Source: a virus
Virus record (IMG/VR): IMGVR_UViG_3300010287_000003
Direction: 5' to 3' (one strand)
Length of the DNA stretch: 31,111 bases
Shown: positions 2,366 through 30,284 of the stretch, piece by piece
How the letters are laid out: each line of letters begins with the position of its first letter
Numbering within the stretch: position 1 is the first letter of the stretch
Notes under the pieces: generated by a model
Seen by the model: the letters and a program-made list of their open reading frames with translations, nothing else
The model's database searches: none
What the model was told of the DNA's origin: nothing
Program-made: the position numbers and the translations under genes

Positions 2366-2451
2366 AGCCCTGAAACGCGCGTGGCGTTGCACGTAAAACT
2401 CGAACGCGGACGTGAAAACTGTCGAGCAGAGTGCAACAGGAGAGATCTACA

Positions 2452-3375
2452 GTGGGACTAATCAACTCGATTGACATTGCCACGGCGGCGGAGGCCATCC
2501 CGACGATTGTCGCGGCCCGCGCGCTTGGCAGCCTGAAATCGAACACGGTTCTGGCGCGGCTGGTGAACCGCAACTGGTCGAATGAGGTCGCCCAGTACGG
2601 TTCGACCGTCAAAATCCCCATGCCGGGGGCGCTGGTGGCGAATGACAAGCTCGCACAGAGCCAGGTCACGCTGCAGAACCCGGCGCTGGACTCGAAGTCG
2701 GTCACGCTAGACCGGCACAAGGAAGTGAGCTTCCTGATCGAAGACGTTGCCGCGGCGCTGAGCCGGCCCGAGCTGCTGGACATCTACATGGCAGAGGGGA
2801 TCGTCCGGATTGCAGAGGCGATGGACAGCGACATCGCGGCGCTGTTCAGTGGCCTGGTCCAGTCGGTCGACGCGACCGCCGGGCTGGACGAAGAGCACTT
2901 CCGCGATGCGCGCCGGCTGATCAACGCCGCAAAGGCGCCGATGGCAAACCGCTATGCCGTGCTGCACGAGGATGCCGAGTACGAGTTCCTCGGCATCGAA
3001 AAGGCCGTCAAGGACGACTACAAGGGCAGCCTGGGCGGGGCTGTCGCCGACGCGTGGACCGGGCGGTTCATGGGCTTTCAGACCTTCATGGACCAGCAGA
3101 TCGCGGTTGTCGAGGGCACAGATCCCGATCCGGACGTGTGCCAGAACCTGTTCTTCCACCGGGACGCCTTCGTGCTGGTGACGCGGCCTCTGCCGCGGGC
3201 GCCGGAAGGGCTAGGCGTGGTGCAGACGGTGATGGACGAGGACGGGATCGGGCTGCGCGTCACGATGGGGTACAGCAAGGATTACCTGGGTCTCCAGGTG
3301 ACGATCGATGTGCTGTACGGCGTGGAAGTGCTGCGCGAAGATTTCGGCGTTGCCGTCCGGACGCAGGGCATGTAG
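2452..3375 (+). CDS. Major capsid protein
   Basis: Frame is open from GTG 2431. GTG 2452 has AGGAGA 8 nt upstream and is the preferred start. About 307 aa, follows the scaffold gene and is followed by a strong GC hairpin. Family not verifiable without a search. Confidence 0.75.
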   Translation: MGLINSIDIATAAEAIPTIVAARALGSLKSNTVLARLVNRNWSNEVAQYGSTVKIPMPGALVANDKLAQSQVTLQNPALDSKSVTLDRHKEVSFLIEDVAAALSRPELLDIYMAEGIVRIAEAMDSDIAALFSGLVQSVDATAGLDEEHFRDARRLINAAKAPMANRYAVLHEDAEYEFLGIEKAVKDDYKGSLGGAVADAWTGRFMGFQTFMDQQIAVVEGTDPDPDVCQNLFFHRDAFVLVTRPLPRAPEGLGVVQTVMDEDGIGLRVTMGYSKDYLGLQVTIDVLYGVEVLREDFGVAVRTQGM

Positions 3376-3401
3376 CGAGCCGCCGTTGAGGTGCATGGGA
3401 T

Positions 3402-3429
3402 CGGGCGCGGTGCGAGCGTGCCGCGCCCG
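3402..3429 (+). terminator. GC-rich hairpin after capsid gene (9-bp stem CGGGCGCGG/CCGCGCCCG, 10-nt loop)
   Basis: Stem pairing checked by hand. Lies 27 nt after the capsid stop. No canonical U-tract; followed 3 nt later by the 21-bp palindrome. Confidence 0.4.
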
Positions 3430-3432
3430 GTG

Positions 3433-3453
3433 ATCTGATAACGGTTATCAGAT
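3433..3453 (+). repeat. 21-bp palindrome copy 1 (ATCTGATAACGGTTATCAGAT), intergenic
   Basis: Exact match to the four other copies. Perfect 10-bp arms around a central G. Confidence 0.97.
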
Positions 3454-4482: not shown

Positions 4483-4854
4483 GTGGCGCAGTCAGCGACG
4501 ATCCGGATCGAGTGGGACCAAAGCAGTCTGCGCCAGGTGGACGCCGCAATCGTCGATTATGGCGAGCGGGTTATGACGGCCGTCCGAGCCGTGGCTGACT
4601 ACTTCCGCCCGGTGTTGGAAGACTACGCGCGGCAGAACGCGAGCTGGACCGACCGGACCGGGAACGCGCGCCAGACGCTGCACGCCTGGGTTGACGAGGT
4701 GGCGCGTGACATCGTGGAGCTGTGGCTCGGTCACGGCATGGACTACGGGCTGTGGCTCGAAGTTCGCTGGGGCGGACGGTACGCGATCGTCTGGCCGACG
4801 ATCGAGCAGCACTTGGGGCAGGTGGCGCAGATGTTGCGGGAGATCTTCGCGTGA
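4483..4854 (+). CDS. Putative neck/tail-completion protein (HK97 gp10-like by size and position)
   Basis: 123 aa, GTG start with AAAGGAG upstream. Lies in the neck gene block. Confidence 0.45.
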   Translation: MAQSATIRIEWDQSSLRQVDAAIVDYGERVMTAVRAVADYFRPVLEDYARQNASWTDRTGNARQTLHAWVDEVARDIVELWLGHGMDYGLWLEVRWGGRYAIVWPTIEQHLGQVAQMLREIFA

Positions 4855-5288
4855 GGCTGGAACAGGCGGTCCGAGAGCTGCTGGAAGGCGACGAAGTGCT
4901 GAGCGATCTGCTGACCGGCGGGATCTACGACGCGGATGAAATGGACCGTGACAACTGGACGCTGCAAAACGTCAAGCGCGCGCCGAGCGGGCGGCTGCTG
5001 CCGTTCGCGGTGCTGCGCTGGGGCGGGGATGTGCCCGGCGGCGGCCTGAACACCAGCGGGCGCGTGACGCTGGACGTGTGGATTTACGAGGACAGCGGCT
5101 TTTCGCACATCCGCCCGGCGATGGAGCGCGTGCGCGAGCTGCTGCACCTGCGGAGTTTCAGCACGAGCGAGAAAAGCGTGGCGCGGGGGATGTGGCTGGG
5201 CGGCCTGGGCGAAGGCGTCGCCGACGAACTGGGCAAGGCCAGCCGGAACCGCGCGCGCATCCAGTTTACCTACGCTTGGAGGGCATGA
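4851..5288 (+). CDS. Putative tail terminator / tail completion protein
   Basis: GTG 4851 overlaps the upstream stop (GTGA). The upstream part of track ORF 4722..5288 overlaps the previous gene. 145 aa, immediately before the major tail gene. Confidence 0.45.
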   Translation: MRLEQAVRELLEGDEVLSDLLTGGIYDADEMDRDNWTLQNVKRAPSGRLLPFAVLRWGGDVPGGGLNTSGRVTLDVWIYEDSGFSHIRPAMERVRELLHLRSFSTSEKSVARGMWLGGLGEGVADELGKASRNRARIQFTYAWRA

Positions 5289-5842
5289 TGGGATTTGGAG
5301 ATAAGCCGTTTGGGCTGACAGACCTGAAGGTCGCCGTGCTCAACGCTGACGGGACGTATGGGACGCCGGTGGCGCTGCCGGAAGGCCGCAAGCTGGTAAT
5401 GGCAGCCAAGACGGTCACAAGCAAGCTGCCGGGCTACCTGGGCGCGACCGCGGCGGTGGCGACGGTGGTCCAGGACGTGGAAGTGACGATCGACGGCGGG
5501 ACCGTTCCGAAGGAGTTTCTGGCGGCGGTGTTGGGGCTGACGGCGGAGACCGGCGGCACGACGCCGGATGCGACGAAGAGCCTGAATCTCGAAGTCCGCA
5601 AGCCGTTCCCCTACTTCGGGGTGATCGGCGTGGCGCTCGACGATGACGGCGGCGACACGCACTTCGGGCTGCCGAAGGTGAAGCTGACCGAACTGCCGGA
5701 GTGGACGGCCCAGAACGAGGACAACCTCTTTGTGACGTCGTCCATGAAGGGGCTGGCGATCGCCGACGACGCAGGCAAAGCGATCTACCTGCTGAGCCAT
5801 GAGACGGCGGCAGAAGCCGACTTCACCGAGATTTTCGCGTAG
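5285..5842 (+). CDS. Major tail protein
   Basis: ATGATG at 5285 overlaps the upstream TGA, with GGAGGG upstream. 185 aa. Located before the chaperone pair and tape measure, and followed by a strong hairpin as for the capsid gene. Confidence 0.6.
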   Translation: MMGFGDKPFGLTDLKVAVLNADGTYGTPVALPEGRKLVMAAKTVTSKLPGYLGATAAVATVVQDVEVTIDGGTVPKEFLAAVLGLTAETGGTTPDATKSLNLEVRKPFPYFGVIGVALDDDGGDTHFGLPKVKLTELPEWTAQNEDNLFVTSSMKGLAIADDAGKAIYLLSHETAAEADFTEIFA

Positions 5843-5861
5843 AGCGCGACGAGACCATGAG

Positions 5862-5887
5862 CCGGGGCGCTGAGCGAGGCGCCCCGG
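5862..5887 (+). terminator. GC-rich hairpin after major tail gene (9-bp stem CCGGGGCGC/GCGCCCCGG, 8-nt loop)
   Basis: Pairing checked by hand. Lies 20 nt after the stop codon; followed by TT and then the palindrome. Confidence 0.4.
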
Positions 5888-5889
5888 TT

Positions 5890-5910
5890 ATCTGATAACG
5901 GTTATCAGAT
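5890..5910 (+). repeat. 21-bp palindrome copy 2, intergenic
   Basis: Exact ATCTGATAACGGTTATCAGAT. Confidence 0.97.
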
Positions 5911-5930: not shown

Positions 5931-6401
5931 ATGGAAATCACCAAAGGCTCAGCGTGGCGGACGACGGAAGACGTGGAGTTGCCCAGCGGCAATGTAGCGC
6001 GGCTGCGCAAGCCGGACGTGCTGGCGCTGATCATGTCGAACGGCGAGATCCCGGACGTGCTGAGCGCGCAGTTGCTCGCCGGGATGCAAGGCGGTGCGGC
6101 GCCGAAGCAGATCGAACTCACGGCGGAGAACGTCAGCGGGTTGCTGGAAGTGGTCAACACGGTCACACGGGCGTCGTTCGTCCTGCCTCGCATTGTGGAC
6201 AAGCCCGAAGCCGAGATGACCGAAGACGAGATCGGGATCGAGCACGTGGCGTTTAACGACCGGGTGTTCGTGCTCAAGTGGGCGATGGGGGGCAGCATCG
6301 CGGCTGCACAGCGGTTTCCTGACTCCCCGGCGCGCGTGGGAACTGTACCGGCAGGCGGAAGCCTTCGGAAGGGCGCCAAGCGAGCTGCTAAGCGTCAGTG
6401 A
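5931..6401 (+). CDS. Tail assembly chaperone (G-like, short form)
   Basis: 156 aa, GGAGAGGG RBS. Sits between the major tail and tape-measure genes. Overlapped at its 3' end by an open alternative frame that runs to the tape-measure start. Confidence 0.65.
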   Translation: MEITKGSAWRTTEDVELPSGNVARLRKPDVLALIMSNGEIPDVLSAQLLAGMQGGAAPKQIELTAENVSGLLEVVNTVTRASFVLPRIVDKPEAEMTEDEIGIEHVAFNDRVFVLKWAMGGSIAAAQRFPDSPARVGTVPAGGSLRKGAKRAAKRQ

Positions 6402-14488: not shown

Positions 14489-14902
14489 ATGTTCGAGAAT
14501 CCGACGATCCAATCGGTTGCGACCATCGGCGTTGCGGCGCTGCTGGTCATCGTGTTCGTGGTGCTGGCGCTGGGGCTGCTGTGGCTGAGCCTGGCGCTGG
14601 TCAAGCGCATCCGCGCGGAAATGGCGCGGGCAGGGGTGACGCCGGGTCAGGTGGACCAGGCGCTCGGCGGTCTGGCGAATGTGCCGGGGTTTCTGCGCCC
14701 GCTGGTGGACGAGCCGACCGACCTGGCGATTGTGCTGCTGGCGTCGGCGTTCCGGCGCGATCCGGTGACGGTGGTTAACCAGCTTGACGTGACTCTGAAG
14801 GCACTCGGAAAACTGACTATGCTGCTGCCGGAGCTGCGCGACGCGCTGGGACTGAACGAGCAGGTGAGCGAGAGCGACCACGTTGAAACGGCTCACGGGT
14901 AG
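14489..14902 (+). CDS. Putative holin-like membrane protein
   Basis: 137 aa with a long hydrophobic stretch (VATIGVAALLVIVFVVLALGLLWLSLALV). Immediately upstream of the lysin candidate, which it overlaps. Confidence 0.45.
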   Translation: MFENPTIQSVATIGVAALLVIVFVVLALGLLWLSLALVKRIRAEMARAGVTPGQVDQALGGLANVPGFLRPLVDEPTDLAIVLLASAFRRDPVTVVNQLDVTLKALGKLTMLLPELRDALGLNEQVSESDHVETAHG

Positions 14903-16328
14903 TAATTGGCTATGGCTCGGCGCGATCGCCTGGGTGCTGCTGATCATCGTGACGTGGCACAGCGAGGACCTGGCGGCGACGCCGGTTGTGGCGCAGGGCA
15001 GCGGCGCATCTGATAACGGTTATCAGATAGAGCCGGGGTGGTACATGCGGTTGGGCGAGCTGTACTGGGACGAGGCGACGGGGCACCTGCTGTTATGCAG
15101 CGAGTGGTCTACCGACTGCCCGCCGGGCGCGCCGGTGACTCCGGAGCCGAGCGAGCTGCCGGTCATAATCCCATCCATAACTTACACCCCGGATTTGACT
15201 GCTACACCACCGCCGACCAACACGCCGCGCCCCAGTCCGACGCCGACTCTGACACCGAGCGCGACGCCGGGCATGCCGACGCCGACGCCCGAAATGAAGT
15301 GCTGGGGCACGGTGACGGCGACCAGGCTCAACGTGCGCGACAAGCCCAACGGAACTGTTCTGGGGCAGGTGGCGCAGGGCGACACGCTGGCGCTGGAAGG
15401 CGTGCGCTACGGCGAGGACGGCAGCAAGTGGTATCTGATCTACTGGTTGCCGGACGTGACCGGGTTTGTGGCCGTGCAGTATGTCGAGGTCGATCAGGAT
15501 GCGGCGTGCGGCCACCTGATCGACCGCCCCATGCTGGGCTGGACGGTCGTCCCTGGCGCGAGCCGGGACGCGCTGCTGCTGGCGGGCGATCTGATGATGG
15601 CGGGCGGGATCACACCGTCTGCCACAATCACCAGCGACGGAGAGACGGCGAGCGTGCTGCACGACGCGGGCTGGTTTGTCGTCGTGCGAATGTGGGCGAT
15701 CTGGCCCGGCGACTGCCCGGACATGAGCCTGCCGCCGGCGACGTCGGCGCGGCTGCGCGTCGAATATCTGGAGCGGCAGCACGGCGGGGCGCGGTTCAGC
15801 GCGGCGCAGCTCACCAATGAGTGCGCCTGGCCGAGCGCGGCGTACCTGCGCGACTGGCTGATCGCCGCGGTCGGCGAGTGTGACGATCGGGGCTGGTCGT
15901 GCATCCCGGTGACGTTTAACACCGGGGCGCCGGAGTTGACCTGGCTGGCGACGCTGCGCCCAGCGCTGCGCCTGATGCGCGAGCGCGGCCACTACCTGGG
16001 TTACAATGCCTACCCGTATGACGCGGACCGGTCGCTGTGCGAGGTGAACGACTGGACAAGTTACACCACCTACCGCTGGCGGAAGTTCGCGGAAGAGATC
16101 CCGGTGGACGAGCTGCCGCTGCTCTACCTCACGGAAGCGGCGCGGGGTGACGGCGCGCAGCCGGTGGTGATCGAAGATACGACCTGCTTCGTGGCCGCGA
16201 CGCGCGGCGAAGTGGTGGCGGTCAATTTTTGGTATGACGGCGTGGCGCTGGCACCGTGGACGGGCGCGGCCTGGTCGAACGGAGCGAAGTGGGAAGCGGC
16301 GCGCCAGTGGGCGCGAGCGCTGATCTGA
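14883..16328 (+). CDS. Putative endolysin: signal-anchor + Pro/Thr linker + SH3b-like + C-terminal TIM-barrel-like domain
   Basis: 481 aa, TTG start. N-terminal hydrophobic segment (WLWLGAIAWVLLIIVTW), PT-rich linker and an SH3b-like segment (ATRLNVRDKPNGTVLGQVAQGDTL ... WYLIYW ... GFVAVQYVE). C-terminal about 280 aa carries NEC ... GHYLGYNAY ... LTEAA spacing reminiscent of clan GH-A hydrolases. Confidence 0.5.
   Translation: MKRLTGSNWLWLGAIAWVLLIIVTWHSEDLAATPVVAQGSGASDNGYQIEPGWYMRLGELYWDEATGHLLLCSEWSTDCPPGAPVTPEPSELPVIIPSITYTPDLTATPPPTNTPRPSPTPTLTPSATPGMPTPTPEMKCWGTVTATRLNVRDKPNGTVLGQVAQGDTLALEGVRYGEDGSKWYLIYWLPDVTGFVAVQYVEVDQDAACGHLIDRPMLGWTVVPGASRDALLLAGDLMMAGGITPSATITSDGETASVLHDAGWFVVVRMWAIWPGDCPDMSLPPATSARLRVEYLERQHGGARFSAAQLTNECAWPSAAYLRDWLIAAVGECDDRGWSCIPVTFNTGAPELTWLATLRPALRLMRERGHYLGYNAYPYDADRSLCEVNDWTSYTTYRWRKFAEEIPVDELPLLYLTEAARGDGAQPVVIEDTTCFVAATRGEVVAVNFWYDGVALAPWTGAAWSNGAKWEAARQWARALI
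15008..15028 (+). repeat. 21-bp palindrome copy 3, inside the lysin candidate (encodes SDNGYQ)
   Basis: Exact ATCTGATAACGGTTATCAGAT. TCT at 15009 is in frame with the 14883 start. Confidence 0.97.
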
Positions 16329-16767: not shown

Positions 16768-18954
16768 TTAGGCTTCGTCTGGGTCGTCGGGCTGGAGCAC
16801 GATCAGCAGCCCGGTAAGCGAATTCAGCGCGCCGCGGGCGCACACCTGCGCCTTGTCGATGCGCAGCGCCAGTGCTTCGGCGTCCTTGTCGGAGAGCTTC
16901 CCGGCGAGGTACATGCTGGCTTGGGTGACACGTGTGGCGCGAGATGCGCTGTTGATCAGGCGGTCCAGCTCGACCACTGTGCGCTGGTAGAGGCGCTGGA
17001 CGGCGGCCGGCGGCTCGTTATCCGCCTCGTCGGGTAGCGCGGCGAGCAGCTTGGCGTAGACGTCGCGCCCGGCGTCGGTCAGGACGTAGCCGGTGCACCA
17101 CTGGCTGCCCGATGACCACTTGTTGACCGGGGCGATCCAGCCCTCGCGGATGGCGAGCTTGGCGGCAGGGCTGGTGTCAGTGTAGTCGGCGCCGTCCCAG
17201 GCGGCCGCGAGCAGCGACTCGGAGTTGGGGCGCAGCTCGTGGAGCAGGTGCAGCAGCGGCACATGCTGATCGGCGGGGATGACGGCGAGCGGATCGGGCG
17301 GGGCAACGCGCTTGACTACGCCCGGCTGTGGACGCGCGAGCTTGCCCGCGCCGATCAGCAGGTTCAGAGCGCGGTGGAAGCGGTCGTTTTGCAGACCGCT
17401 TTTCTGGCGGAGCGTTTCGAGTAGCGTGGCTTCGTCTTCCAGCAGGTCGAGCAGGCGATCGGCGTCAAGGGCGGTTTGCGTGGGCGGGAGCGACTTTTCC
17501 CAGTCTTCGGCGTCAGCTTCGTGCTCGTCCGGCTCGTCCTCGTAGTCGCCGGTGCAGTCGTCCGCCAGCTCATCATCCGGCGTCGCTTCGGCTTCGGCCT
17601 CGGTCTGCTGGCGGCGGGCGTCGTCTTCGGCCATGCTCTGCTGCCACTCTTCGCTGCCTTCGGGGATCTCTTCGCGTTCATCCGGATCGAGCACGTCGAG
17701 CAGGCGCTCGCCTTCAGGGACTTCGCGCCCGGCGGGCTTCTTAATCCACACCGAGAGCGGCGAGAGGGTGAAGCGCTCCAGCTCGCCCGCTTCGCACAGG
17801 GCGTCGATCGCGGCGTTGAGCACGTCCTCATTCATGAGGGTGTGTGAGCGGAGCCAGGCGATCTTGATGGATGAGAGCGTCGGGAAGTCGCGCTGGTGTT
17901 GCGCCACGACGCGGCGCAGCAAATTCACTGCCTCTTCGTCGGCGAACGGCTTGGCTTTGGTAGGACCGGCCGGCAGGTAGAGGTCACGGAGACGCCGCAC
18001 GCGCTGCTCGCTGACGAGGGTTTCCAGCGCGCGCCGCAGGGCTTCCAGCCCTGCCTTATCGTCAAGGCCGATATCCAGCAGCTCGCGGATTTGTGCGGTG
18101 GTGAGAGGCTTCTGGAGCAGGTCCAGGATGCGCGCCTGCAACTCGGTTCCGCAATTCACTCGGAAGAAGTCGCGGCCTTCGACGAGCGTCAGCGGGTCCG
18201 CTTGCTCGGTGCCATACAACCGGTCGTGGAGCGCGTAAGCGTCGAATTCGATTTTGGCCTGGCCGTCCCAGACGCCTGCCGTGACCAGCTTGCGGGCGAC
18301 ATCCACCGCGCGGTGTTCGGCACCATCGTCGCTGCGCCCCAGGATAACAATCGCGTCGCGGTCGAACTTGGCGTTTAACTCCGCTTCGACGCGGGCGCGG
18401 GCTGCTTCAACGCGAGCCTCGGAGTTGACGTTCTGCGTGTAGGTTTCGCCGCCGCGCTGAAACAGGCGCGTCTCGGGCATCTGATAACCGTTATCAGATA
18501 GCTCGCGGCGGATCTTAGACACAAGGGGCTGAGACACCATGCAGCGGCGGGCGATTTCATGATCGGACCACTGGCACCACTCGTCGTCCCCGAGCAGCAT
18601 GAGGACGGCACGGCGCTTGTCCTCGTTGCTGCGCCGGACGCCGTGGCTCGCGTTGGCCTTGACCGCGGCGAGGATTGCGTCACGCTTGGAGCCGGGATGG
18701 ACCGTCGCGTTGATCGCGGTGCGCTGGAGCCGTTTCGCGGCGCGGATGCGGTGCCAGCCGTCGCCGATCCAGTACCACTCGCCGTCGTAGAACAGTTCTA
18801 CATCGGGGAGCTGCGTTCCGGCGGCCATCGCGTTAGCGTAGTCTTCGATCGCGCTCTCGTCGAACACGGCGCGCGCCTGGGTGTCTTCGTCCTCGCGGAT
18901 GCGATCCAGCGGGACCATCTTCGTTTGAACTTCCTCGTCGAACAGGGTGGTCAT
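16768..18954 (-). CDS. Large ParB/Srx-domain protein with HTH and several winged-helix-like modules
   Basis: 728 aa, AGGAG RBS. N-terminus (VPLDRIREDEDTQARAV ... WYWIGDGWHRIRAAKRL ... GSKRDAILAAVKANASHG) fits the ParB N-terminal fold, followed by HEIARRCMVSQPLVSKIRR (HTH). Also has an acidic linker and repeated wH-like segments. Confidence 0.7.
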   Translation of the reverse strand: MTTLFDEEVQTKMVPLDRIREDEDTQARAVFDESAIEDYANAMAAGTQLPDVELFYDGEWYWIGDGWHRIRAAKRLQRTAINATVHPGSKRDAILAAVKANASHGVRRSNEDKRRAVLMLLGDDEWCQWSDHEIARRCMVSQPLVSKIRRELSDNGYQMPETRLFQRGGETYTQNVNSEARVEAARARVEAELNAKFDRDAIVILGRSDDGAEHRAVDVARKLVTAGVWDGQAKIEFDAYALHDRLYGTEQADPLTLVEGRDFFRVNCGTELQARILDLLQKPLTTAQIRELLDIGLDDKAGLEALRRALETLVSEQRVRRLRDLYLPAGPTKAKPFADEEAVNLLRRVVAQHQRDFPTLSSIKIAWLRSHTLMNEDVLNAAIDALCEAGELERFTLSPLSVWIKKPAGREVPEGERLLDVLDPDEREEIPEGSEEWQQSMAEDDARRQQTEAEAEATPDDELADDCTGDYEDEPDEHEADAEDWEKSLPPTQTALDADRLLDLLEDEATLLETLRQKSGLQNDRFHRALNLLIGAGKLARPQPGVVKRVAPPDPLAVIPADQHVPLLHLLHELRPNSESLLAAAWDGADYTDTSPAAKLAIREGWIAPVNKWSSGSQWCTGYVLTDAGRDVYAKLLAALPDEADNEPPAAVQRLYQRTVVELDRLINSASRATRVTQASMYLAGKLSDKDAEALALRIDKAQVCARGALNSLTGLLIVLQPDDPDEA
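18479..18499 (-). repeat. 21-bp palindrome copy 4, inside the 728-aa ParB-like gene (encodes SDNGYQ on the reverse strand)
   Basis: The + strand reads ATCTGATAACCGTTATCAGAT, so the central base is G on the sense (reverse) strand. In frame with start 18954. Confidence 0.97.
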
Positions 18955-21704: not shown

Positions 21705-22676
21705 CTACCCTGCGCCAAGCTGATGCTTAGCAGCAGGGTTTTGTTTTATCTGCTGCGGCTGCCAGTAGTGCAGATCGAGCAGCGCCCCGGCCTGGCGTAG
21801 ATCCGTTTCGTCCACGTCCTGGTAGTACTCCAGCGTCGTCGTGATGCTGGTGTGTCCCAGGTAGTGCTGAGTGATACGGGGAGCGACATGCTCGCGGGCA
21901 AACTTCAACCCCACACGATGACGCAAGCTGTGCGCGCCCAGGCGGCGCGAAAGCCCGGCTGTTTTGCACAGACGCCGGATGACCTCGCTGATCGCACGTG
22001 GCGAGAGGCGGGCAGAGCCACGCCACGGTGTGAAGACGTAATCCGTCGGCTTGTCGGGCCGGGCTTCGAGCCATGCGCGGATGGCGTCGGCTGTCTCCGC
22101 GTTGAAGTAGATGCGGCGGCGCCGGTTCCCCTTGCCGTTCACCAGCGCAGAACAGTTGTCCAATTCGAGGTCGCGGATTCGCAGACCTGCCGCTTCGCCG
22201 GCACGACAGCCCGAATTGGCGAGCAGGAGCACGAGCGCCCGATCGCGCGGCTTGAAGCGCGACGCGGCGAGCAACATCTCCAGCTCGTCATCCGTGGCGG
22301 CCTTGCCCTGACCAAGCGGCAGCGCAGGGCGGCGATTGACGAGGTAACCAGCGGGCGAGGCGTCGATAAGGCCAGAGCGCTCGCACCAGCGAAAGAAGGA
22401 CTTAATCATCTTGACATTTTTATAGATGGTCGCCGGAGCAAGGGGGGCCTGGACCGCCGGGCGGCGGGTGTGCGTGGCGTACTTGGTTGTGCGCGTTCGC
22501 ATCGCCGTCACGTAGGCGTCGATGTCTTCGGGCCGGACAAGGGAGATCGGTCGCTGCGGCCCGATCGCGGCGACGAACTCGGTGAGGAAGCGGCGATACG
22601 TCTGCTTCGTCTGGTCAGCGCGATCGACCAGCAGATAGCGGCGTAACGCCTCTTCGAGCGTGATGGGTTCGGTCAT
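21705..22676 (-). CDS. int: Tyrosine recombinase / phage integrase
   Basis: 323 aa with SGCRAGEAAGLRIRDL, HSLRHRVG and LGHTSITTTLEYY (the R..HxxR..Y catalytic pattern). Adjacent to the tRNA fragment. Confidence 0.9.
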   Translation of the reverse strand: MTEPITLEEALRRYLLVDRADQTKQTYRRFLTEFVAAIGPQRPISLVRPEDIDAYVTAMRTRTTKYATHTRRPAVQAPLAPATIYKNVKMIKSFFRWCERSGLIDASPAGYLVNRRPALPLGQGKAATDDELEMLLAASRFKPRDRALVLLLANSGCRAGEAAGLRIRDLELDNCSALVNGKGNRRRRIYFNAETADAIRAWLEARPDKPTDYVFTPWRGSARLSPRAISEVIRRLCKTAGLSRRLGAHSLRHRVGLKFAREHVAPRITQHYLGHTSITTTLEYYQDVDETDLRQAGALLDLHYWQPQQIKQNPAAKHQLGAG

Positions 22677-22826: not shown

Positions 22827-23972
22827 ATGGACAGTGAGAAACCTGTAGAAATCAGGGATGAAGGCACGACGGATCGCTATTTCCACGTCATGTTGAACAT
22901 GGCGGACGACGACCTCGATCCATATGAATACCGTCTGCTGGGGCACTACCGGCGCGTGTGCGGGGCGCAGAATGTGCCATGCACCGAGGGGACGCGGAAG
23001 ACCGCCGAGCGGTGCAAGATGAGCGCCGGGAAGGTGTCGGAGACGCGCGCAGCGCTGGCAGCGGCAGGCTGGATTAAGCTGGCCGAAGACGGCAACCGGG
23101 TGATCGTGACGCTGATTGATCGCATGCCCGAAAATGTTGCCCGTTATAGCGCCGATAAGCGTTCACCTGATGAACGTTCACCACATGAACGTTCTGGGAA
23201 TCGCAAAAACGTTCACCGTATGAACGTTTCGTTCACCACACGAACAAAACGTTCACCACATGAACGCAAACGTTCACCTGGTGAACGGAAGAAAGAACTT
23301 ATTAAGAAACAACCATTCAAAGAGCCAGCAAAAACATCATCAAGCAGCGATCGGGGAGATCGGACAGGCGGCGAGCAGGTTGATGATGATGGCTTCATCA
23401 GAAACCAAGCCGAGCTGATCGGTTTGAGCCGTGAAAACTGCGAGAAGCTGCTCGCGGTGGGCGTGGAGCGCGCAACGGGGCTGCTGATCGCAGCGCGACG
23501 TAAGGCGAAGACGAACCCGGCGGGCCTGCTGCTCGCGATGCTGGGCAGCGAACAGCCGCCTTCAGCGGACGATCTGTCGCTGGTGCCGCTGGCGCTGGAG
23601 CTGGGGACGACGGAGCCGGATCGGCTGGATCGCGAGCAACGGGGGCGACAGCTTCGCCAGTTTGCCGCGCGCCAGAACGGTTCTGATCTGGCGGCGAGCA
23701 CGCCGGACCGGTCCGCGCAGGACGTGTGGCAGCAGGTGATCGGGCAACTGCGGGTGCAGCTTAACCGGGCGACGTTCGACACGTGGCTAGACGGCATGAC
23801 CGCGGAGCAGTTCGCCGATGGCGTGCTGACGGTCCGCGCTAAGCACGCGTACGGGGCGGACTGGTGCAAGAAGAATCTCCAGCCGCTGGTGGACCGGCTC
23901 GCGTCCACGGCGGCCGGGCAGGCGATCCGAGTGGTGTTCGAGGCTCCGGCGTGGATGGTCGCCAGGAGCTAA
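22827..23972 (+). CDS. Replication initiator (N-terminal wHTH, iteron-encoded linker, C-terminal DnaA-domain-I-like module)
   Basis: 381 aa. N-terminus YEYRLLGHYRRVCG ... KMSAGKVSETRAALAAAGWIKL (wHTH). The internal iteron array is translated in varying frames. C-terminus DVWQQVIGQLRVQLNRATFDTWL ... GADWCKKNL ... IRVVFEA resembles the DnaA N-terminal domain. Confidence 0.65.
   Translation: MDSEKPVEIRDEGTTDRYFHVMLNMADDDLDPYEYRLLGHYRRVCGAQNVPCTEGTRKTAERCKMSAGKVSETRAALAAAGWIKLAEDGNRVIVTLIDRMPENVARYSADKRSPDERSPHERSGNRKNVHRMNVSFTTRTKRSPHERKRSPGERKKELIKKQPFKEPAKTSSSSDRGDRTGGEQVDDDGFIRNQAELIGLSRENCEKLLAVGVERATGLLIAARRKAKTNPAGLLLAMLGSEQPPSADDLSLVPLALELGTTEPDRLDREQRGRQLRQFAARQNGSDLAASTPDRSAQDVWQQVIGQLRVQLNRATFDTWLDGMTAEQFADGVLTVRAKHAYGADWCKKNLQPLVDRLASTAAGQAIRVVFEAPAWMVARS
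23161..23286 (+). repeat. Six iterons GTTCACCNNNYGAAC (putative origin of replication), followed by an AT-rich tract 23287-23350
   Basis: Copies lie at 23161, 23176, 23211, 23231, 23251 and 23272 (15 nt each, GTTCA/TGAAC inverted arms). The downstream ggaagaaagaacttattaagaaacaaccattcaaagagccagcaaaaacatcat is strongly A/T-enriched. Confidence 0.7.
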
Positions 23973-24043: not shown

Positions 24044-24808
24044 ATGATCACTTTTGCGGCAATCAATGAGAAGGGCGGGTCGGGCCGCACGACAGCGTTT
24101 GTCAACCTAGCGGCGGGTCTCGCCGTGCGGGGGAAGCGGGTGTTGCTGATCGACACCGACGAGCAAGGTCACGCGACCATTGCCTACGGCTTTGAGAAGT
24201 TCGCGGGGCTGTACGACCTGATGGTGCGCGGCGCCAAGTGGTTTGACGTGGCGATTCCGGTGGACGCCGAGCGATACGGCAGCCGGGGCCTGAGCAATCT
24301 CTACCTGGTCGGCTCGAACGTTGAGACACGGACCATCGCGCTCAACATTGACGACAAGTGGCGGCTCGCCAAGCGCCTCGCCGAAGTTTCGGATATGTTC
24401 GACGTGTGCCTGATCGACACGTCCCCCACTCCATCCGCGCTGCACAGCACGGTGTTCCTGGCGGCAGATTACATCATCTGTCCGACAGAGCTTGAGGTCC
24501 TCGGGCTGGACGGCTTGCACGAGTCGATTAAGCGGGTACAGGCGGTGCGGGTGCTGGAAGGCAAGGACCTGCGCGTCGCGGGAATTGTGCCGAACAAGTG
24601 CCGCCTGACGACGCTTGAGCACAAAGAGAACCTGGCCCGGCTGCAAGAGAGTTTCGGCGCGGCGGTCTGGCCGCCGATCACGCTGAGCATTATCTGGCCC
24701 GAGGCGATGGCTTTCGGGCGCCCGGTGATCGTCCATGCGCCCGATCACGACGCGGCGTTTTCGGTGTGGGAAATGGTAGACCGCGTGGAGGCACTTTGCA
24801 ATGGCTAG
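24044..24808 (+). CDS. parA: ParA/Soj-family partition ATPase-like protein (Walker A Lys replaced by Arg)
   Basis: 254 aa with NEKGGSGRTT (deviant Walker A), VLLIDTDEQG and FDVCLIDTSP. GGAGAGGG RBS. Confidence 0.8.
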   Translation: MITFAAINEKGGSGRTTAFVNLAAGLAVRGKRVLLIDTDEQGHATIAYGFEKFAGLYDLMVRGAKWFDVAIPVDAERYGSRGLSNLYLVGSNVETRTIALNIDDKWRLAKRLAEVSDMFDVCLIDTSPTPSALHSTVFLAADYIICPTELEVLGLDGLHESIKRVQAVRVLEGKDLRVAGIVPNKCRLTTLEHKENLARLQESFGAAVWPPITLSIIWPEAMAFGRPVIVHAPDHDAAFSVWEMVDRVEALCNG

Positions 24809-26288
24809 TAGACGGCGGCAGGGAGATCGGATCGGACCGCTCGTAGGCGAGCGTGAGACGCCGTCGGACGCGGCGCAGCGGATCTATGGCACGGTGCGGC
24901 GCGTGAAGCTGGATGAAATCCGGATCGTGGACAGCGTTCAGGTGCGGGTAGACGGGCTGGACGAAGAGCGTGTTGAGCGCTACACGGAATTTCTGCTCGC
25001 CGGTGGCACCTTCAAAGATGCGATCGTGGTCTACCAGGATGGGCCGGACCTGATTCTCGCGGCAGGGTTCCACCGGTGTGAGGCGTACCGGCGCGCACTG
25101 GAGCGCTTTGAGCCGAGTGGGGATGCGCAAGCACTGGCGCCGTTGATGGCGGAAATTCGGACCGGCGGGCATGAGGCGGCGATCGAGTTCGCTGAAGAGG
25201 ACAATCTGGCGCACGGGTTGGAACTGTCGCCACGGGATAAAAGGTACATCCTGGAGCGCCGTTTCAAGCGCGGGCATGAGTGGGCGTCGTTGAGCAACCG
25301 AGCACTGGCAGCAAAGTTAGGCGTCTCTGACATGACGATCGGCCGCTGGCGGGCGGAGATCGAAGAGAAAACAGGTGCAACAAATGTTGCACGTGGGCGC
25401 GTCGGCAAGGATGGCAAGACCTACGATGTGAGCGGGCAGCAGATCGCGGCGGCACGCGAGGCGCTGGCGAGGCTGGCTCTGCCGCCGCTTGACAAGGACC
25501 AGCGCGAAGTAGTGCGGCGGTCCATCATCACCAGCATTGACTACATCAAGATGGCGCAGTACGGCTCCGGCTGTAAATACCGTCAGTACCTGCCCTATGC
25601 GCTCGCGGTGGAGTTGGAAGCCGACGAGCCGCGTGTGTCGCTGGTGAACTGGATGCGAGGCGAGCTGCCGAAGTGGCAGGAAGAGCAGGACGAGGCGCGC
25701 CGGACCGAGGAGCAGGCGGCACGCGCGCGCCTTAAGGAACATCTGCTGGCGGTGTTGCTGCGCGGGCCATTCGACCTGACGCAGATGATTGGATTGGACG
25801 GGCTTGCTGGCTTGACTCCGCGCGCGTGCTGGGATGTGGTCCATGATCTGATGCGCGAGGGGGCGATCCGGCGCGTGTCGGATGACGTGTATGAGCTGGT
25901 GCGCGCCGCCGAGCCGAGCGAAACTGAGCCGCTATCTGATAACGGTTATCAGATGGACGAGCCGGAGCCGGAAGCGGATTGGCTCGATGCGACGGTCAAG
26001 CGGGCGGCGGGAGTGGCCCTGCGGGATAATACGTCAATCGAATACGAGAGCGACGAGGCGATGGCGGCGAGGTTAACCGAGTTACTGCGCGTCGGCTCGC
26101 ATGTCTTGTGCGACCTGGAAGATGTGCTGGAGCAGACAGCACCGGTGCCGGAGTGGGTGTTGTCGAAGCTCGATGACTTGAGCAAATTGCTACATGGTCA
26201 TCCAGGCCAAGACGACGATATTTGGAATCCCGGGCTGAACAGCTTGCTGGCCGACCTGAACACGAGAAGCAGAAGGGAGCGGGAATGA
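24801..26288 (+). CDS. ParB/Srx-domain HTH protein (ParB-like partner of ParA)
   Basis: 495 aa; its start overlaps the parA stop. KLDEIRIVDSVQVR ... LILAAGFHRCEAYRRA (ParB N-domain-like), LAAKLGVSDMTIGRWR (HTH) and a wH-like segment. The acidic linker carries the palindrome. Confidence 0.7.
   Translation: MASRRRQGDRIGPLVGERETPSDAAQRIYGTVRRVKLDEIRIVDSVQVRVDGLDEERVERYTEFLLAGGTFKDAIVVYQDGPDLILAAGFHRCEAYRRALERFEPSGDAQALAPLMAEIRTGGHEAAIEFAEEDNLAHGLELSPRDKRYILERRFKRGHEWASLSNRALAAKLGVSDMTIGRWRAEIEEKTGATNVARGRVGKDGKTYDVSGQQIAAAREALARLALPPLDKDQREVVRRSIITSIDYIKMAQYGSGCKYRQYLPYALAVELEADEPRVSLVNWMRGELPKWQEEQDEARRTEEQAARARLKEHLLAVLLRGPFDLTQMIGLDGLAGLTPRACWDVVHDLMREGAIRRVSDDVYELVRAAEPSETEPLSDNGYQMDEPEPEADWLDATVKRAAGVALRDNTSIEYESDEAMAARLTELLRVGSHVLCDLEDVLEQTAPVPEWVLSKLDDLSKLLHGHPGQDDDIWNPGLNSLLADLNTRSRRERE
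25934..25954 (+). repeat. 21-bp palindrome copy 5, inside the 495-aa ParB-like gene (encodes SDNGYQ)
   Basis: Exact ATCTGATAACGGTTATCAGAT. TCT at 25935 is in frame with the 24801 start. Confidence 0.97.
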
Positions 26289-28422: not shown

Positions 28423-28824
28423 ATGGCCCCGCGGCGGCAATGGACCGACGAAGAAAAGGCGGAGATTCTGGCCGCGCTGGACGCCAATCAAGGCAACGTC
28501 AAGCGGACGGCCCGGCAGTGTGGCGTGCCGATCAGCACGCTGCGCGGCTGGGTGAAAGGCCGGGGAACCAACGCCGGAGTGGCGAAGTTGCGCCCCGAAA
28601 AAAAGGGCGACCTGGCCGACGCGCTGGAAGAAATCGCCTGGAAGATTGTGGAGCTGCTGCCGGACAAGCTGGAGACGGCGGAAGTGCGGGAACTGGCAAC
28701 GCTGCTGGGCGTGTCGCTGGACAAGCTGCTGGTGCTGCGCGGCAAGGCGAACAACCGGACCGAGGTCAGCGGCGTGCAGATTTACGTCCCCGACAACGGG
28801 CGGCAGAGTAACCAGGTGGCATGA
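28423..28824 (+). CDS. terS: Terminase small subunit (HTH type)
   Basis: 133 aa. N-terminal HTH (QGNVKRTARQCGVPISTLRGWVKG). ATGA overlap with the large terminase. Confidence 0.7.
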   Translation: MAPRRQWTDEEKAEILAALDANQGNVKRTARQCGVPISTLRGWVKGRGTNAGVAKLRPEKKGDLADALEEIAWKIVELLPDKLETAEVRELATLLGVSLDKLLVLRGKANNRTEVSGVQIYVPDNGRQSNQVA

Positions 28825-30284
28825 CAGAGATCCGGCCCCAGGCGGCGCAGGAACGGTTCTTAGCGTCGCCGGCTGATATTGTGATTTACGGCGGGGCGGC
28901 TGGCGGCGGCAAGACGTGGTCACTGCTGGTCGAACCGGTCAGGCACATTAACAACCCGGCCTTTCGCGCGGTGCTGTTCCGGCGGGCATACCCGCAGATC
29001 ATCAATCCGGGTGGGATGCACGACGAAGCGCAGAAGCTGTACCCGCTGCTGGGCGGCTCGGCGACACAGCCATCCAGCGGGATTACGTGGACGTTTCCTA
29101 GCGGGGCGGTGGTGCGGTTCGCGCACCTGCAGCACGACAAGTCGGTCTACGACTGGCAGGGCGCGCAGATTCCGCTCATCGGCTTTGACGAGCTGACGCA
29201 CTTCAGCGAGGCGCAGTTCTGGTACATGCTGAGCCGCAACCGCTCATTATCCGGCGTTCGCCCATATGTTCGGGCGACGACGAACCCGGAGCCGAACTGG
29301 GTGGCGCGGCTGCTGGACTGGTGGATCGGCGAGGACGGCTACGCGATTCCGGAGCGGGGCGGGCATATCCGTTGGTTCGTGCGCTTCGGCGGCGAGCTGG
29401 TGTGGGCCGACAGTCCGGACGAGCTGACGAGCAAGTATCGCGGGGTCGAGCCAAAGAGCCTGACGTTTATCCCGGCGCGGCTCGAAGACAACCGCGTGCT
29501 GATGGACCGCGATCCCGGTTACCTGGCGAACCTGCTGGCGCTGCCGCTGGTCGAACGCGAGCGACTGCTCGGCGGTAACTGGAAGATCCAGCCGAGCGGC
29601 GGAAAGGTGTTCAACCGGGGCTGGTTCGAGATCGTGGCGCCCCAGGATGTGCCGCGCGGCGGCGTGGAGTGCCGGTTTTGGGACCTGGCCGCGACGGAGA
29701 AGAAGCTGAAAGGCAACGATCCGGACTTTTCGGCGGGCGTGAAGGTTCGCAAGGTAGAGGACCGGTACTACGTGATGGACTGCATCGCCGTCCAGGCCGG
29801 GCCGGCGGAAGTGGACCGGCTGATCATCAGCACGGCGCTACGCGACAGCGAGCAGGCGCGGCGCAGCGGGACGCGATACATGGTCCGCTGGGAGACGGAG
29901 CCGGGCAGCGCTGGGAAGCGTGAGACAAGCCGCCTGGTGAAGATGCTGGACGGCTACGACGCAAAGGGCGAGAGGCCGACCGGTGACAAGCTGACACGGG
30001 CGAAGGCGCTGAGCGCGCAAAGCGAACAAGGGTTCGTATTGCTGGTGGCCGGGGCGTGGAACGAGGGCTGGCTGACGCACATGCACCACCAACCGGACTG
30101 GGACCATGACGACATTATGGACGCGAGCAGCGGGGCGTATAACGCGCTGGTCAATCCGGGTGCGGAGTCGGGTTTTGTGGACTGGTACGGCGAGGCGCCG
30201 GAGCCGGTGGAGATCGAACCGGTGCGCGCAGACGACGAGATCGCCGATATGTTAGCGCGCTACGAGGCGGAGATAGATGGCTGA
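28821..30284 (+). CDS. terL: Terminase large subunit
   Basis: 487 aa. Walker A YGGAAGGGKTW, Walker B LIGFDELTHF and a C-terminal nuclease-like half. Followed by the portal gene. Confidence 0.9.
   Translation: MTEIRPQAAQERFLASPADIVIYGGAAGGGKTWSLLVEPVRHINNPAFRAVLFRRAYPQIINPGGMHDEAQKLYPLLGGSATQPSSGITWTFPSGAVVRFAHLQHDKSVYDWQGAQIPLIGFDELTHFSEAQFWYMLSRNRSLSGVRPYVRATTNPEPNWVARLLDWWIGEDGYAIPERGGHIRWFVRFGGELVWADSPDELTSKYRGVEPKSLTFIPARLEDNRVLMDRDPGYLANLLALPLVERERLLGGNWKIQPSGGKVFNRGWFEIVAPQDVPRGGVECRFWDLAATEKKLKGNDPDFSAGVKVRKVEDRYYVMDCIAVQAGPAEVDRLIISTALRDSEQARRSGTRYMVRWETEPGSAGKRETSRLVKMLDGYDAKGERPTGDKLTRAKALSAQSEQGFVLLVAGAWNEGWLTHMHHQPDWDHDDIMDASSGAYNALVNPGAESGFVDWYGEAPEPVEIEPVRADDEIADMLARYEAEIDG

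Follow-up and report, generated by a model that had tools for sequence, protein, structure and literature searches.

This study concerns a 31,111-nucleotide stretch of viral DNA (IMG/VR record IMGVR_UViG_3300010287_000003, hereafter called the window) and a 21-bp palindrome, ATCTGATAAC(G/C)GTTATCAGAT = ATCTGATAACGGTTATCAGAT, which occurs in it in five exact copies with 0 expected (100 shuffles). Three copies are coding and two are intergenic, they are separated by 2.5-9 kb around the 31-kb genome, and no isolated half-sites of the 21-mer were found in the window. The 21-mer is probably the cognate palindromic site, parS- or operator-like, of a ParB-like protein of 728 amino acids (aa) with a helix-turn-helix (HTH) motif that is encoded in the window, presumably bound by a symmetric dimer. 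This candidate assignment was made because the recognition helix and wing of the protein family relate to the site sequence in the manner of a code, and because the protein is predicted to have a ParB/Noc/KorB-like fold with an HTH. A comparison with relatives slightly favors the further reading that members of this ParB-like family form self-addressed cassettes, in which a palindrome stands after the helix, and helix, wing and site co-diversify as a unit of less than 100 bp. As part of the cassette reading, the identity of the inner hexamer may be set by the helix and that of the outer tetranucleotide by the wing.

Predicted fold of the 728-aa protein

In an AlphaFold2 (AF2) model of the N-terminus of the 728-aa protein, two helices (residues 131-138 and 142-154) are followed by a beta-hairpin (162-175). 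The recognition helix reads VSQPLVSKIR and the wing is of the RGG type. Foldseek matched this model to Noc, ParB, KorB (8qa8, 8qa9) and PadC with E-values of 1e-7 to 1e-5, and the alignments of about 145-160 residues take in the DNA-binding domain of ParB, Noc and KorB. The protein itself matches phrog_1033 (E=8e-19) and most of its homologues carry precomputed PF02195 matches; the family assignment rests on these two matches and the predicted fold. A Pfam scan (E <= 0.01) of the two ParB-like proteins of the window and of a lysin candidate returned nothing useful, with NCBIfam hits that were noise only, and a sequence search against the PDB gave marginal ParB matches only. With respect to a possible binding of cytidine triphosphate (CTP), judged from sequence only, the residues G66-W-H-R69 fit the GxxR motif, with D65, G66, H68 and R69 being invariant, and the arginines of the canonical GERRxR motif are absent.

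Palindromes inside the genes of the family

Scanning public collections with the 19-base core TCTGATAACNGTTATCAGA yielded 56 loci. In many of the high-GC core matches, the 21-mer sits at the corresponding place of homologues of the 728-aa protein, which read '..VSQPFVSK.R...SDNGYQ..' there (L001, L041, L046, L051, L053, L056). Homologues reading SANGLQ and SPNGLE, which had been found by their protein sequence alone, were predicted from the peptide to have variant palindromes, and the DNA bore this out (ATCTGCAAACgGTTTGCAGAT and ATCTCCAAACgGTTTGGAGAT, respectively), with both arms altered in a compensatory manner. Three of the SANGLQ homologues have 21/21 site bases in common and flanks that are 22-69% identical.

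Eighty viral loci were also fetched by protein similarity alone, with search patterns outside the site region. Gene calls in the fetched loci were based on open reading frames (ORFs), and the threshold for calling a palindrome was a match in 9 or more of the 10 arm pairs. In 50 of the 80 loci, a palindrome of 20-23 bp directly followed the recognition helix, mostly 25-28 codons past the invariant W126, with spacers of 0-3 nt and in frames 0, 1 and 2 in 10, 18 and 22 loci. The palindrome density is 5.23 per kb in a 122-nt interval at this position compared to 0.256 per kb in the remainder of these loci. Relatives in this ParB-like family are encoded by at least 531 IMG/VR stretches.

Correspondence between helix, wing and site

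The relation between protein and site was derived from 42 non-redundant protein-site pairs. The outer tetranucleotide follows the wing, as ATCT is found with R(N/G)G in 20/20 pairs, CACT with KHG in 17/17 and TACT with HHxTG in 2/2. The similarity of the helices correlates with that of the inner hexamers with r = 0.41, which was reached in 0 of 2000 permutations, and this correlation also holds for pairs from different outer classes when the permutation is made within classes. For instance, TCGGAA accompanies the helix VSDKTV whichever of the three outer classes the site belongs to, xxFV-type helices are paired with ..AAC, and the VSQPFV helix with (G/A/T)ATAAC (window, L062, L100, L146, L147).

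A 48-kb relative of the window (L144) encodes a counterpart of the 728-aa protein at 1-1818 on the - strand, which has part of the region behind the DNA-binding head in common with it (56% identity over 149 aa, matching residues 192-336 of the 728-aa protein). Unlike the 728-aa protein, its head is an HTH of the DUF3102 type, and a different palindrome, ACCGTGCAAAtTTTGCACAGT, stands right after the helix. Sites of this palindrome lie at 1533, 14014 and 16839, including a perfect second copy 15 kb away and a variant. Judging from these sequences, the relative looks like the product of a module swap of head plus sites, which supports a modular view.

Several observations weigh against the assignment of the 21-mer to the 728-aa protein. 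Shared ancestry inflates the helix-to-site correlations and was not fully corrected for, about 30 of the 80 homologues are without a clear palindrome at the post-helix position, and the 728-aa protein had no Pfam match of its own at E <= 0.01 when scanned directly. Extra copies of the own palindrome were sought within +-10 kb in the 50 viral loci and none were found. Since the palindrome is single copy in these loci, dispersal is not a family trait, and the window with its four extra dispersed copies is unusual within the family. Furthermore, at 41 of 69 loci a DEAD-like helicase is encoded at +1 to +3 of the homologue gene, and genes for toprim-like and RusA-like proteins and for ATPases accompany it. 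These helicase and primase neighbors hint at a replication-origin role in the family and not at partition or regulation. By analogy with ori-lambda inside gene O, an origin-type role is possible because the gene usually lies in a replication and recombination module. The homologue in L001 has a weak match to phrog_678 'replication initiation O-like', and at least one homologue of the 728-aa gene follows a ParA gene (L059). In the window, the 728-aa gene is not adjacent to the replication genes, unlike its usual viral homologues; it is transcribed leftward and lies beside a regulatory region.

Alternative explanations for the 21-mer

The alternative that survives best is still improbable, namely that the 21-mers are the dispersed centromere (parS) of the ParA/ParB system of the window, which consists of a ParA-type ATPase and a second ParB-like protein of 495 aa, a paralogue of the 728-aa protein. 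A parA-parB operon is present, with the same arrangement in the relatives L141-L144, and one 21-mer lies within parB, as it does in the homologues P0122-P0126. Dispersed centromeres are also generally known from the temperate phage-plasmid N15, in which several single palindromic SopB sites are scattered, including in the late-gene region. However, directly behind the HTH of its own, the 495-aa gene has a palindrome of another sequence, CAGGTGCAACaaatGTTGCACGTG, which occurs once in the window, and this palindrome has compensatory variants in L142 (GGTGGCAAaaatTTGCCACC), L143 and L144 (CTGGCAAaaatTTGCCAG). For this reason, the 495-aa paralogue is a poor candidate for binding the 21-mer, and the palindrome after its HTH is likely, from this sequence comparison, the true centromere of the ParA/ParB pair. 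In addition, the homologues P0127-P0134 are without the peptide encoded by the 21-mer, and L144, which carries P0129, is without any sequence resembling the 21-mer. In the code described above, GATAAC belongs with the VSQPxV helix and ATCT with the RGG wing of the 728-aa protein, whereas the helix of the 495-aa protein is VSDMTIGRWR. The comparative test of the 21-mer as the centromere of a ParA-partnered ParB therefore came out against it. In the proposed model, the 728-aa protein would bind the 21-mer and the 495-aa ParB would bind GTGCAACA-AA-TGTTGCAC, with a central G of the 21-mer being equal to a C in effect.

A function of the 21-mer as an RNA hairpin, serving as a processing, stability or pausing signal with a polarity linked to transcription, is less probable again. 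All copies are transcribed and would form a 9-bp stem with a 3-nt loop (z-scores of -2.5 to -4.8), which also weighs against the assignment as a protein binding site. The intergenic copies come directly after strong GC hairpins, and compensatory changes in the arms would keep an RNA stem as well. Nevertheless, it is the identity of the bases and not just their pairing that follows the HTH helix and the wing. Many palindromes of the family have a spacer of 0-3 nt, poorly suited to forming a loop, and both loop variants (CGG, CCG) occur at homologous sites of close relatives. No Rfam match and no U-tract terminator were found at the sites, and features of an intrinsic terminator are absent at the 21-mers, which are AT-rich palindromes with no T run. 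A scan for promoters and terminators around the intergenic copies detected no nearby sigma-70-like promoter and no terminator at the sites.

Another explanation, which we consider very improbable, has nothing to do with the ParB-like protein: the 21-mer would be inserted DNA of a selfish or recombinational kind, for instance a miniature mobile repeat or the target of a recombinase or resolvase. The clean insertion of seven codons into variable linkers would fit this explanation, as would the tyrosine recombinase encoded in the window. Against this, five recombination sites within 31 kb would promote deletions and inversions, neither target-site duplications nor conserved flanks were seen, and the site co-varies across the family with the HTH of the gene that carries it.

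The least credible explanation, that the peptide S-D-N-G-Y-Q is itself functional and the palindrome a by-product, can practically be dismissed despite the identical peptide in three window proteins and the Gly retained in all ParB-internal copies seen, as two copies are intergenic, every coding copy uses the same rare codons, relatives read SDNRYQ, most homologues lack the peptide, and the palindromes of the family encode unrelated peptides in three frames.

A DNA element in coding sequence

The initial annotation, made from the sequence of the window, had left two possibilities for the coding copies, a DNA-level element tolerated in linkers or a functional heptapeptide. The comparison with homologues argues for the former: the selected object is, on this sequence evidence, the DNA and not the peptide, because homologues are mostly without the heptapeptide, the codons are rare, and close relatives read SDNRYQ. 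In the window, TCT accounts for 6% of the Ser codons and GGT for 11% of the Gly codons, and GAT and TAT each account for 28-29% of theirs. Under this codon usage, TCT GAT AAC GGT TAT CAG has a probability of about 3.5e-4 per copy, and the codons are identical in all coding copies.

A protein search with the N-terminus of the 728-aa protein found 190 homologues, 120 of which were listed. The post-HTH position is hypervariable as a peptide in these 120 of 190 homologues, and among the matches listed, SDNGYQ occurs only in P0001. The P0001 site shares 20/21 bases with the 21-mer, and the sole change is synonymous (AAC to AAT) and adjoins the center. Within the 495-aa family, a gap-rich linker contains the heptapeptide as an insertion in P0122-P0126 but not in the more distant P0127-P0134. 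In the family of the 481-aa lysin candidate, it is confined to close relatives, and the homologues read SDNGYQ, SDNRYQ, SGNSYQ or nothing at the position of copy 3. The homologue reading SGNSYQ (P0138) may have a decayed or variant palindrome. The alignment of homologues that the initial annotation had called for thus identifies the heptapeptide as an insertion that more distant 495-aa and 481-aa homologues do not have.

The placement of the coding copies in linkers, also suggested initially, holds for all three proteins, based on structure prediction for the 728-aa and 495-aa proteins and on the comparison of homologues for the 481-aa protein. In the AF2 model of the N-terminus of the 728-aa protein, which has a predicted local distance difference test (pLDDT) score of 88.6, SDNGYQ forms residues 153-158, at the end of the recognition helix 142-154 and in the loop before the beta-hairpin 162-175. 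In the 495-aa protein, it falls within residues 369-416, a segment with a pLDDT below 50. The 481-aa protein has it in a part of variable sequence that follows the hydrophobic anchor at the N-terminus.

Polarity and reading frame

The pattern that drew attention to the 21-mer is real: all three coding copies read S-D-N-G-Y-Q, and the central G is on the locally transcribed strand in all five copies. This agreement has a probability of 1 in 16 by chance. It had been taken as a sign of a strand-specific constraint, which the relatives contradict, since C is on the sense strand at homologous sites in L027, L141, L143 and L033. The lysin homologue in L027 contains CTA TCT GAT AAC CGT TAT CAG ATA = LSDNRYQI and differs from the near-identical P0143, which reads SDNGYQ, at the G/R residue. 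P0136, which is 81% identical to the lysin-candidate protein of the window, reads SDNRYQ, and so do P0124 and P0126 of the parB family, for which the DNA (L141, L143) shows a sense-strand C. In a primase gene (L033), the site is read SDNRYQ and lies within the linker that joins a zinc ribbon and a toprim domain. Outside the ParB-internal context, G and C are about equally frequent on the sense strand, with the orientation in some relatives being deduced from the peptide (G or R) and not from DNA.

The sibling element L141 is mixed, its parB copy having a sense-strand C and its intergenic copy a G. The lysin-candidate protein P0146 reads SDNGYQ, and its longest carrying contig has 30,440 bases, the same as the L141 sibling. 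A polarity rule fails because one sibling element has both orientations. As a perfect palindrome with a single central base is identical from either side, the central G or C would be free, and the uniform polarity in the window is best read as chance. An orientation that follows the direction of replication was also considered and dropped, because the GC skew is uniformly positive and the orientation in L141 is mixed on one strand.

For the initial proposal of a strand-specific element, copies in both orientations and frames among related genomes would have been contrary evidence; copies in both orientations were found, and the frame is constant. In a six-frame translation of the 21-mer, one frame on either strand is closed (I followed by two stops), one reads LITVIR and one reads SDN(G/R)YQ. 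Every coding copy found reads SDN(G/R)YQ and none reads LITVIR, whether in 728-type ParB genes, 495-type parB genes, lysin candidates or the L033 primase; a C-terminal tail in L008 is a possible further coding copy with this reading. The concordance covers about four independent gene contexts, which amounts to about 1 in 16 and is modest statistical support. The frame rule is real but has an ordinary cause, which is tolerance in linkers. The constant frame arises because one frame is closed on both strands and because LITVIR is hydrophobic and beta-branched and needs ATA (3%) and AGA (2% of its family), the rarest codons here. SDNxYQ is polar and would suit disordered linkers, being the sole translatable reading that a linker would tolerate. 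The window is therefore a worked example of a DNA site hidden in coding sequence, as a site can be hidden in this way because only one of its readings is tolerable.

Proposed function and known systems

In the model proposed here, the cognate site would normally be single and lie inside its own gene after the recognition-helix codons. The phage-plasmid would have kept this copy at 18479 and gained four more, of which two stand just before late structural genes, while the lysin-candidate gene and the parB gene contain one each. If the binding assignment is correct, there is roughly an even chance that they nucleate a complex of the ParB-like protein across the entire element, to maintain the plasmid-prophage and/or to damp the lytic genes, as suggested by analogy. 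Alternatives to nucleation are a role as a plain operator or roadblock, or an origin-related role; in the window, replication is covered by a Rep protein with six iterons, and partition by ParA and the 495-aa ParB. A site in its own gene would let the protein load in cis, onto the very gene whose transcription and translation have just produced it. Cassettes of this kind would permit the rapid evolution of mutually orthogonal specificities among co-resident elements, and elements such as this phage-plasmid could then broadcast their address through additional copies placed in linkers and between genes.

Mobile elements with multiple and intragenic ParB-type sites are already known, and the window alone is a familiar case of a mobile element in which a ParB-type protein is accompanied by several palindromic sites. 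KorB of the IncP plasmid RK2 is a partition protein and global regulator with many identical palindromes with a free central G/C (TTTAGCSGCTAAA) across the replicon. The resemblance to the window lies in the ParB family, in the multiple identical palindromes with a free center, and in KorB being among the structural matches of the 728-aa protein. However, KorB partners with IncC/ParA, whereas the window has a separate ParA-linked paralogue, and regulation in the window is suggested by analogy. We know of no OB site that is embedded after the KorB recognition helix. N15 shares with the window the dispersed palindromic ParB-type sites on a phage-plasmid. Its sites belong to the ParA-partnered SopB, which is of another protein family and has another site sequence, whereas those of the window point to a ParB-like paralogue that is an orphan. 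In Bacillus subtilis, a parS lies within the coding sequence of spo0J (parB). Unlike the 21-mer, this site is among several conserved chromosomal sites with a universal sequence and is neither lineage-specific nor tied to the recognition-helix codons.

The O sites of phage lambda occupy an inter-domain linker. A protein with binding sites in its own gene is common to lambda O and the window, where the Rep gene with its six iterons is likewise arranged. Ori-lambda lies within gene O, with the binding sites inside its own coding sequence (PMC6022878). The 728-aa gene differs from lambda O in having a single palindrome and no iteron array, no AT-rich flank, and a ParB-like instead of an O-like fold. 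An iteron array with an AT-rich region was not found inside 728-type genes; the iterons of such an arrangement are present in the Rep gene.

BisD of ICEclc is a ParB-like CTP clamp that loads at two intragenic 11+1+11 palindromes, GAGCTATCCCCnGGGGATAGCTC (PMC12409273). As in the window, a ParB-like protein of a mobile element is combined with a long inverted repeat that is perfect around one central base, and this repeat is present in more than one copy and intragenic. In contrast, the bisS sites lie outside the gene for BisD, the CTP pocket of BisD is canonical, BisD has a partner, BisC, and the sequences are unrelated. A literature survey of incomplete coverage found no account of a post-helix palindrome in its own gene that co-diversifies with helix and wing, but general analogues only, and the novelty of this observation is provisional.

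On the evidence of these sequences, a widespread viral ParB-like family appears to keep its binding site in its own gene, with protein and site changing together. If true, this would provide dozens of natural protein-site pairs that are orthogonal to one another and could serve in DNA labelling or synthetic regulation, as well as a recognition code for an HTH-plus-wing module. It would also explain how co-resident phages or plasmids avoid cross-talk between their maintenance or replication modules.

Element and gene context

The window has a GC content of 65% and encodes phage structural genes, Rep, ParA and the two ParB-like proteins (Table 1). Contigs carrying proteins identical to those of the window reach at most 31,111-31,129 bases, and the window may therefore be a complete phage-plasmid genome. 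Searches gave three weak metagenomic matches only among GenBank phages and zero matches among PLSDB plasmids; the element is therefore, as far as these sequence searches reach, not a described phage or plasmid.

Table 1. Coordinates of the palindromes, hairpins and genes discussed for the window.
Feature	Position	Strand	Remarks
Copy 1 of the 21-mer	3433-3453		Central G on + strand; intergenic, between 314-aa ORF (2431-3375) and next + gene; GC-rich hairpin before, GGAGAGAGG ribosome-binding site after
Copy 2 of the 21-mer	5890-5910		Central G on + strand; intergenic, between ORF 5078-5842 and ORF 5931-6401; right after GC-rich hairpin
Copy 3 of the 21-mer	15008-15028		Central G on + strand; inside 481-aa lysin-candidate gene, read GASDNGYQIE
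Copy 4 of the 21-mer	18479-18499		Central G on - strand; inside 728-aa gene just after recognition-helix codons, read RELSDNGYQMP; family-typical 'own gene' copy
Copy 5 of the 21-mer	25934-25954		Central G on + strand; inside ParA-linked 495-aa gene, predicted disordered linker, read EPLSDNGYQMD
Palindrome CAGGTGCAACaaatGTTGCACGTG	25372-25395		Single copy; just after HTH of 495-aa ParB; candidate cognate site (centromere) of ParA/ParB pair
GC-rich hairpin, 14-bp stem	3400-3431	+	Immediately upstream of copy 1
GC-rich hairpin, 12-bp stem	5860-5889	+	Immediately upstream of copy 2
481-aa 'lysin candidate'	14883-16328	+	N-terminal hydrophobic anchor, Pro/Thr-rich linker, weak SH3_3 match; envelope-anchored; hosts copy 3
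728-aa ParB-like protein	16768-18954	-	Predicted ParB-N fold, HTH, beta-hairpin wing, long C-terminal region; phrog_1033
Tyrosine recombinase/integrase	21705-22676		Pfam scan
Rep gene	22827-23972		Protein has DnaA_N-like C-terminal domain
ParA-type ATPase	24044-24808	+	AAA_31 (E=6e-31), CbiA
495-aa ParB-like protein	24801-26288	+	Start overlaps parA end; phrog_1033, paralogue of 728-aa protein
Large terminase	28821-30284		

Both intergenic copies of the 21-mer sit between + strand genes, just upstream of late structural genes. The siblings L141 and L142 contain at least two copies of the 21-mer each, and the position of copy 1 is conserved in both (12590 and 12669, respectively). The two GC-rich hairpins end the upstream ORFs without a U tract and are followed by the 21-mer and then by the next ribosome-binding site. 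This tandem arrangement of hairpin and 21-mer may matter for the control of read-through.

The Rep gene holds six palindromic iterons of about 16 nt, CGTTCACCnnATGAACG, at 23157-23289 with a spacing of 15-35 nt. With these Rep-internal iterons, which are kept in L141-L143, the initiator gene contains the origin, an arrangement that is also that of lambda O. Another near-perfect palindrome, CGATCGTCTGgCCGACGATCG, lies within a + strand ORF at 4784-4804 of the window and is conserved in the sibling L142 (14020).

Other occurrences of the 21-mer and its core

The 21-mer was also found in seemingly decayed fragments of ParB-like genes ('..VSKVRKGASDNGYQMK..') in L007, L008, L022, L025, L026, L034 and L045. 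The hosts of these fragments are Planctomycetes (L007 Gemmataceae, L008 Singulisphaera) and large metagenome contigs, with several fragments on different large contigs of one metagenome. A repeat in low-GC (about 40%) loci shares the core and has a central A/T and T..A flanks (TTCTGATAACTGTTATCAGAA; L015, L019, L023, L024, L030, L038, L039, L040). It is non-coding, has conserved flanks, comes from one sample set and is probably a separate repeat family. A contig of a Deinococcus metagenome-assembled genome (L009) contains copies with a central A at 180-198 and 6007-6025, which are 5.8 kb apart and both apparently intergenic.

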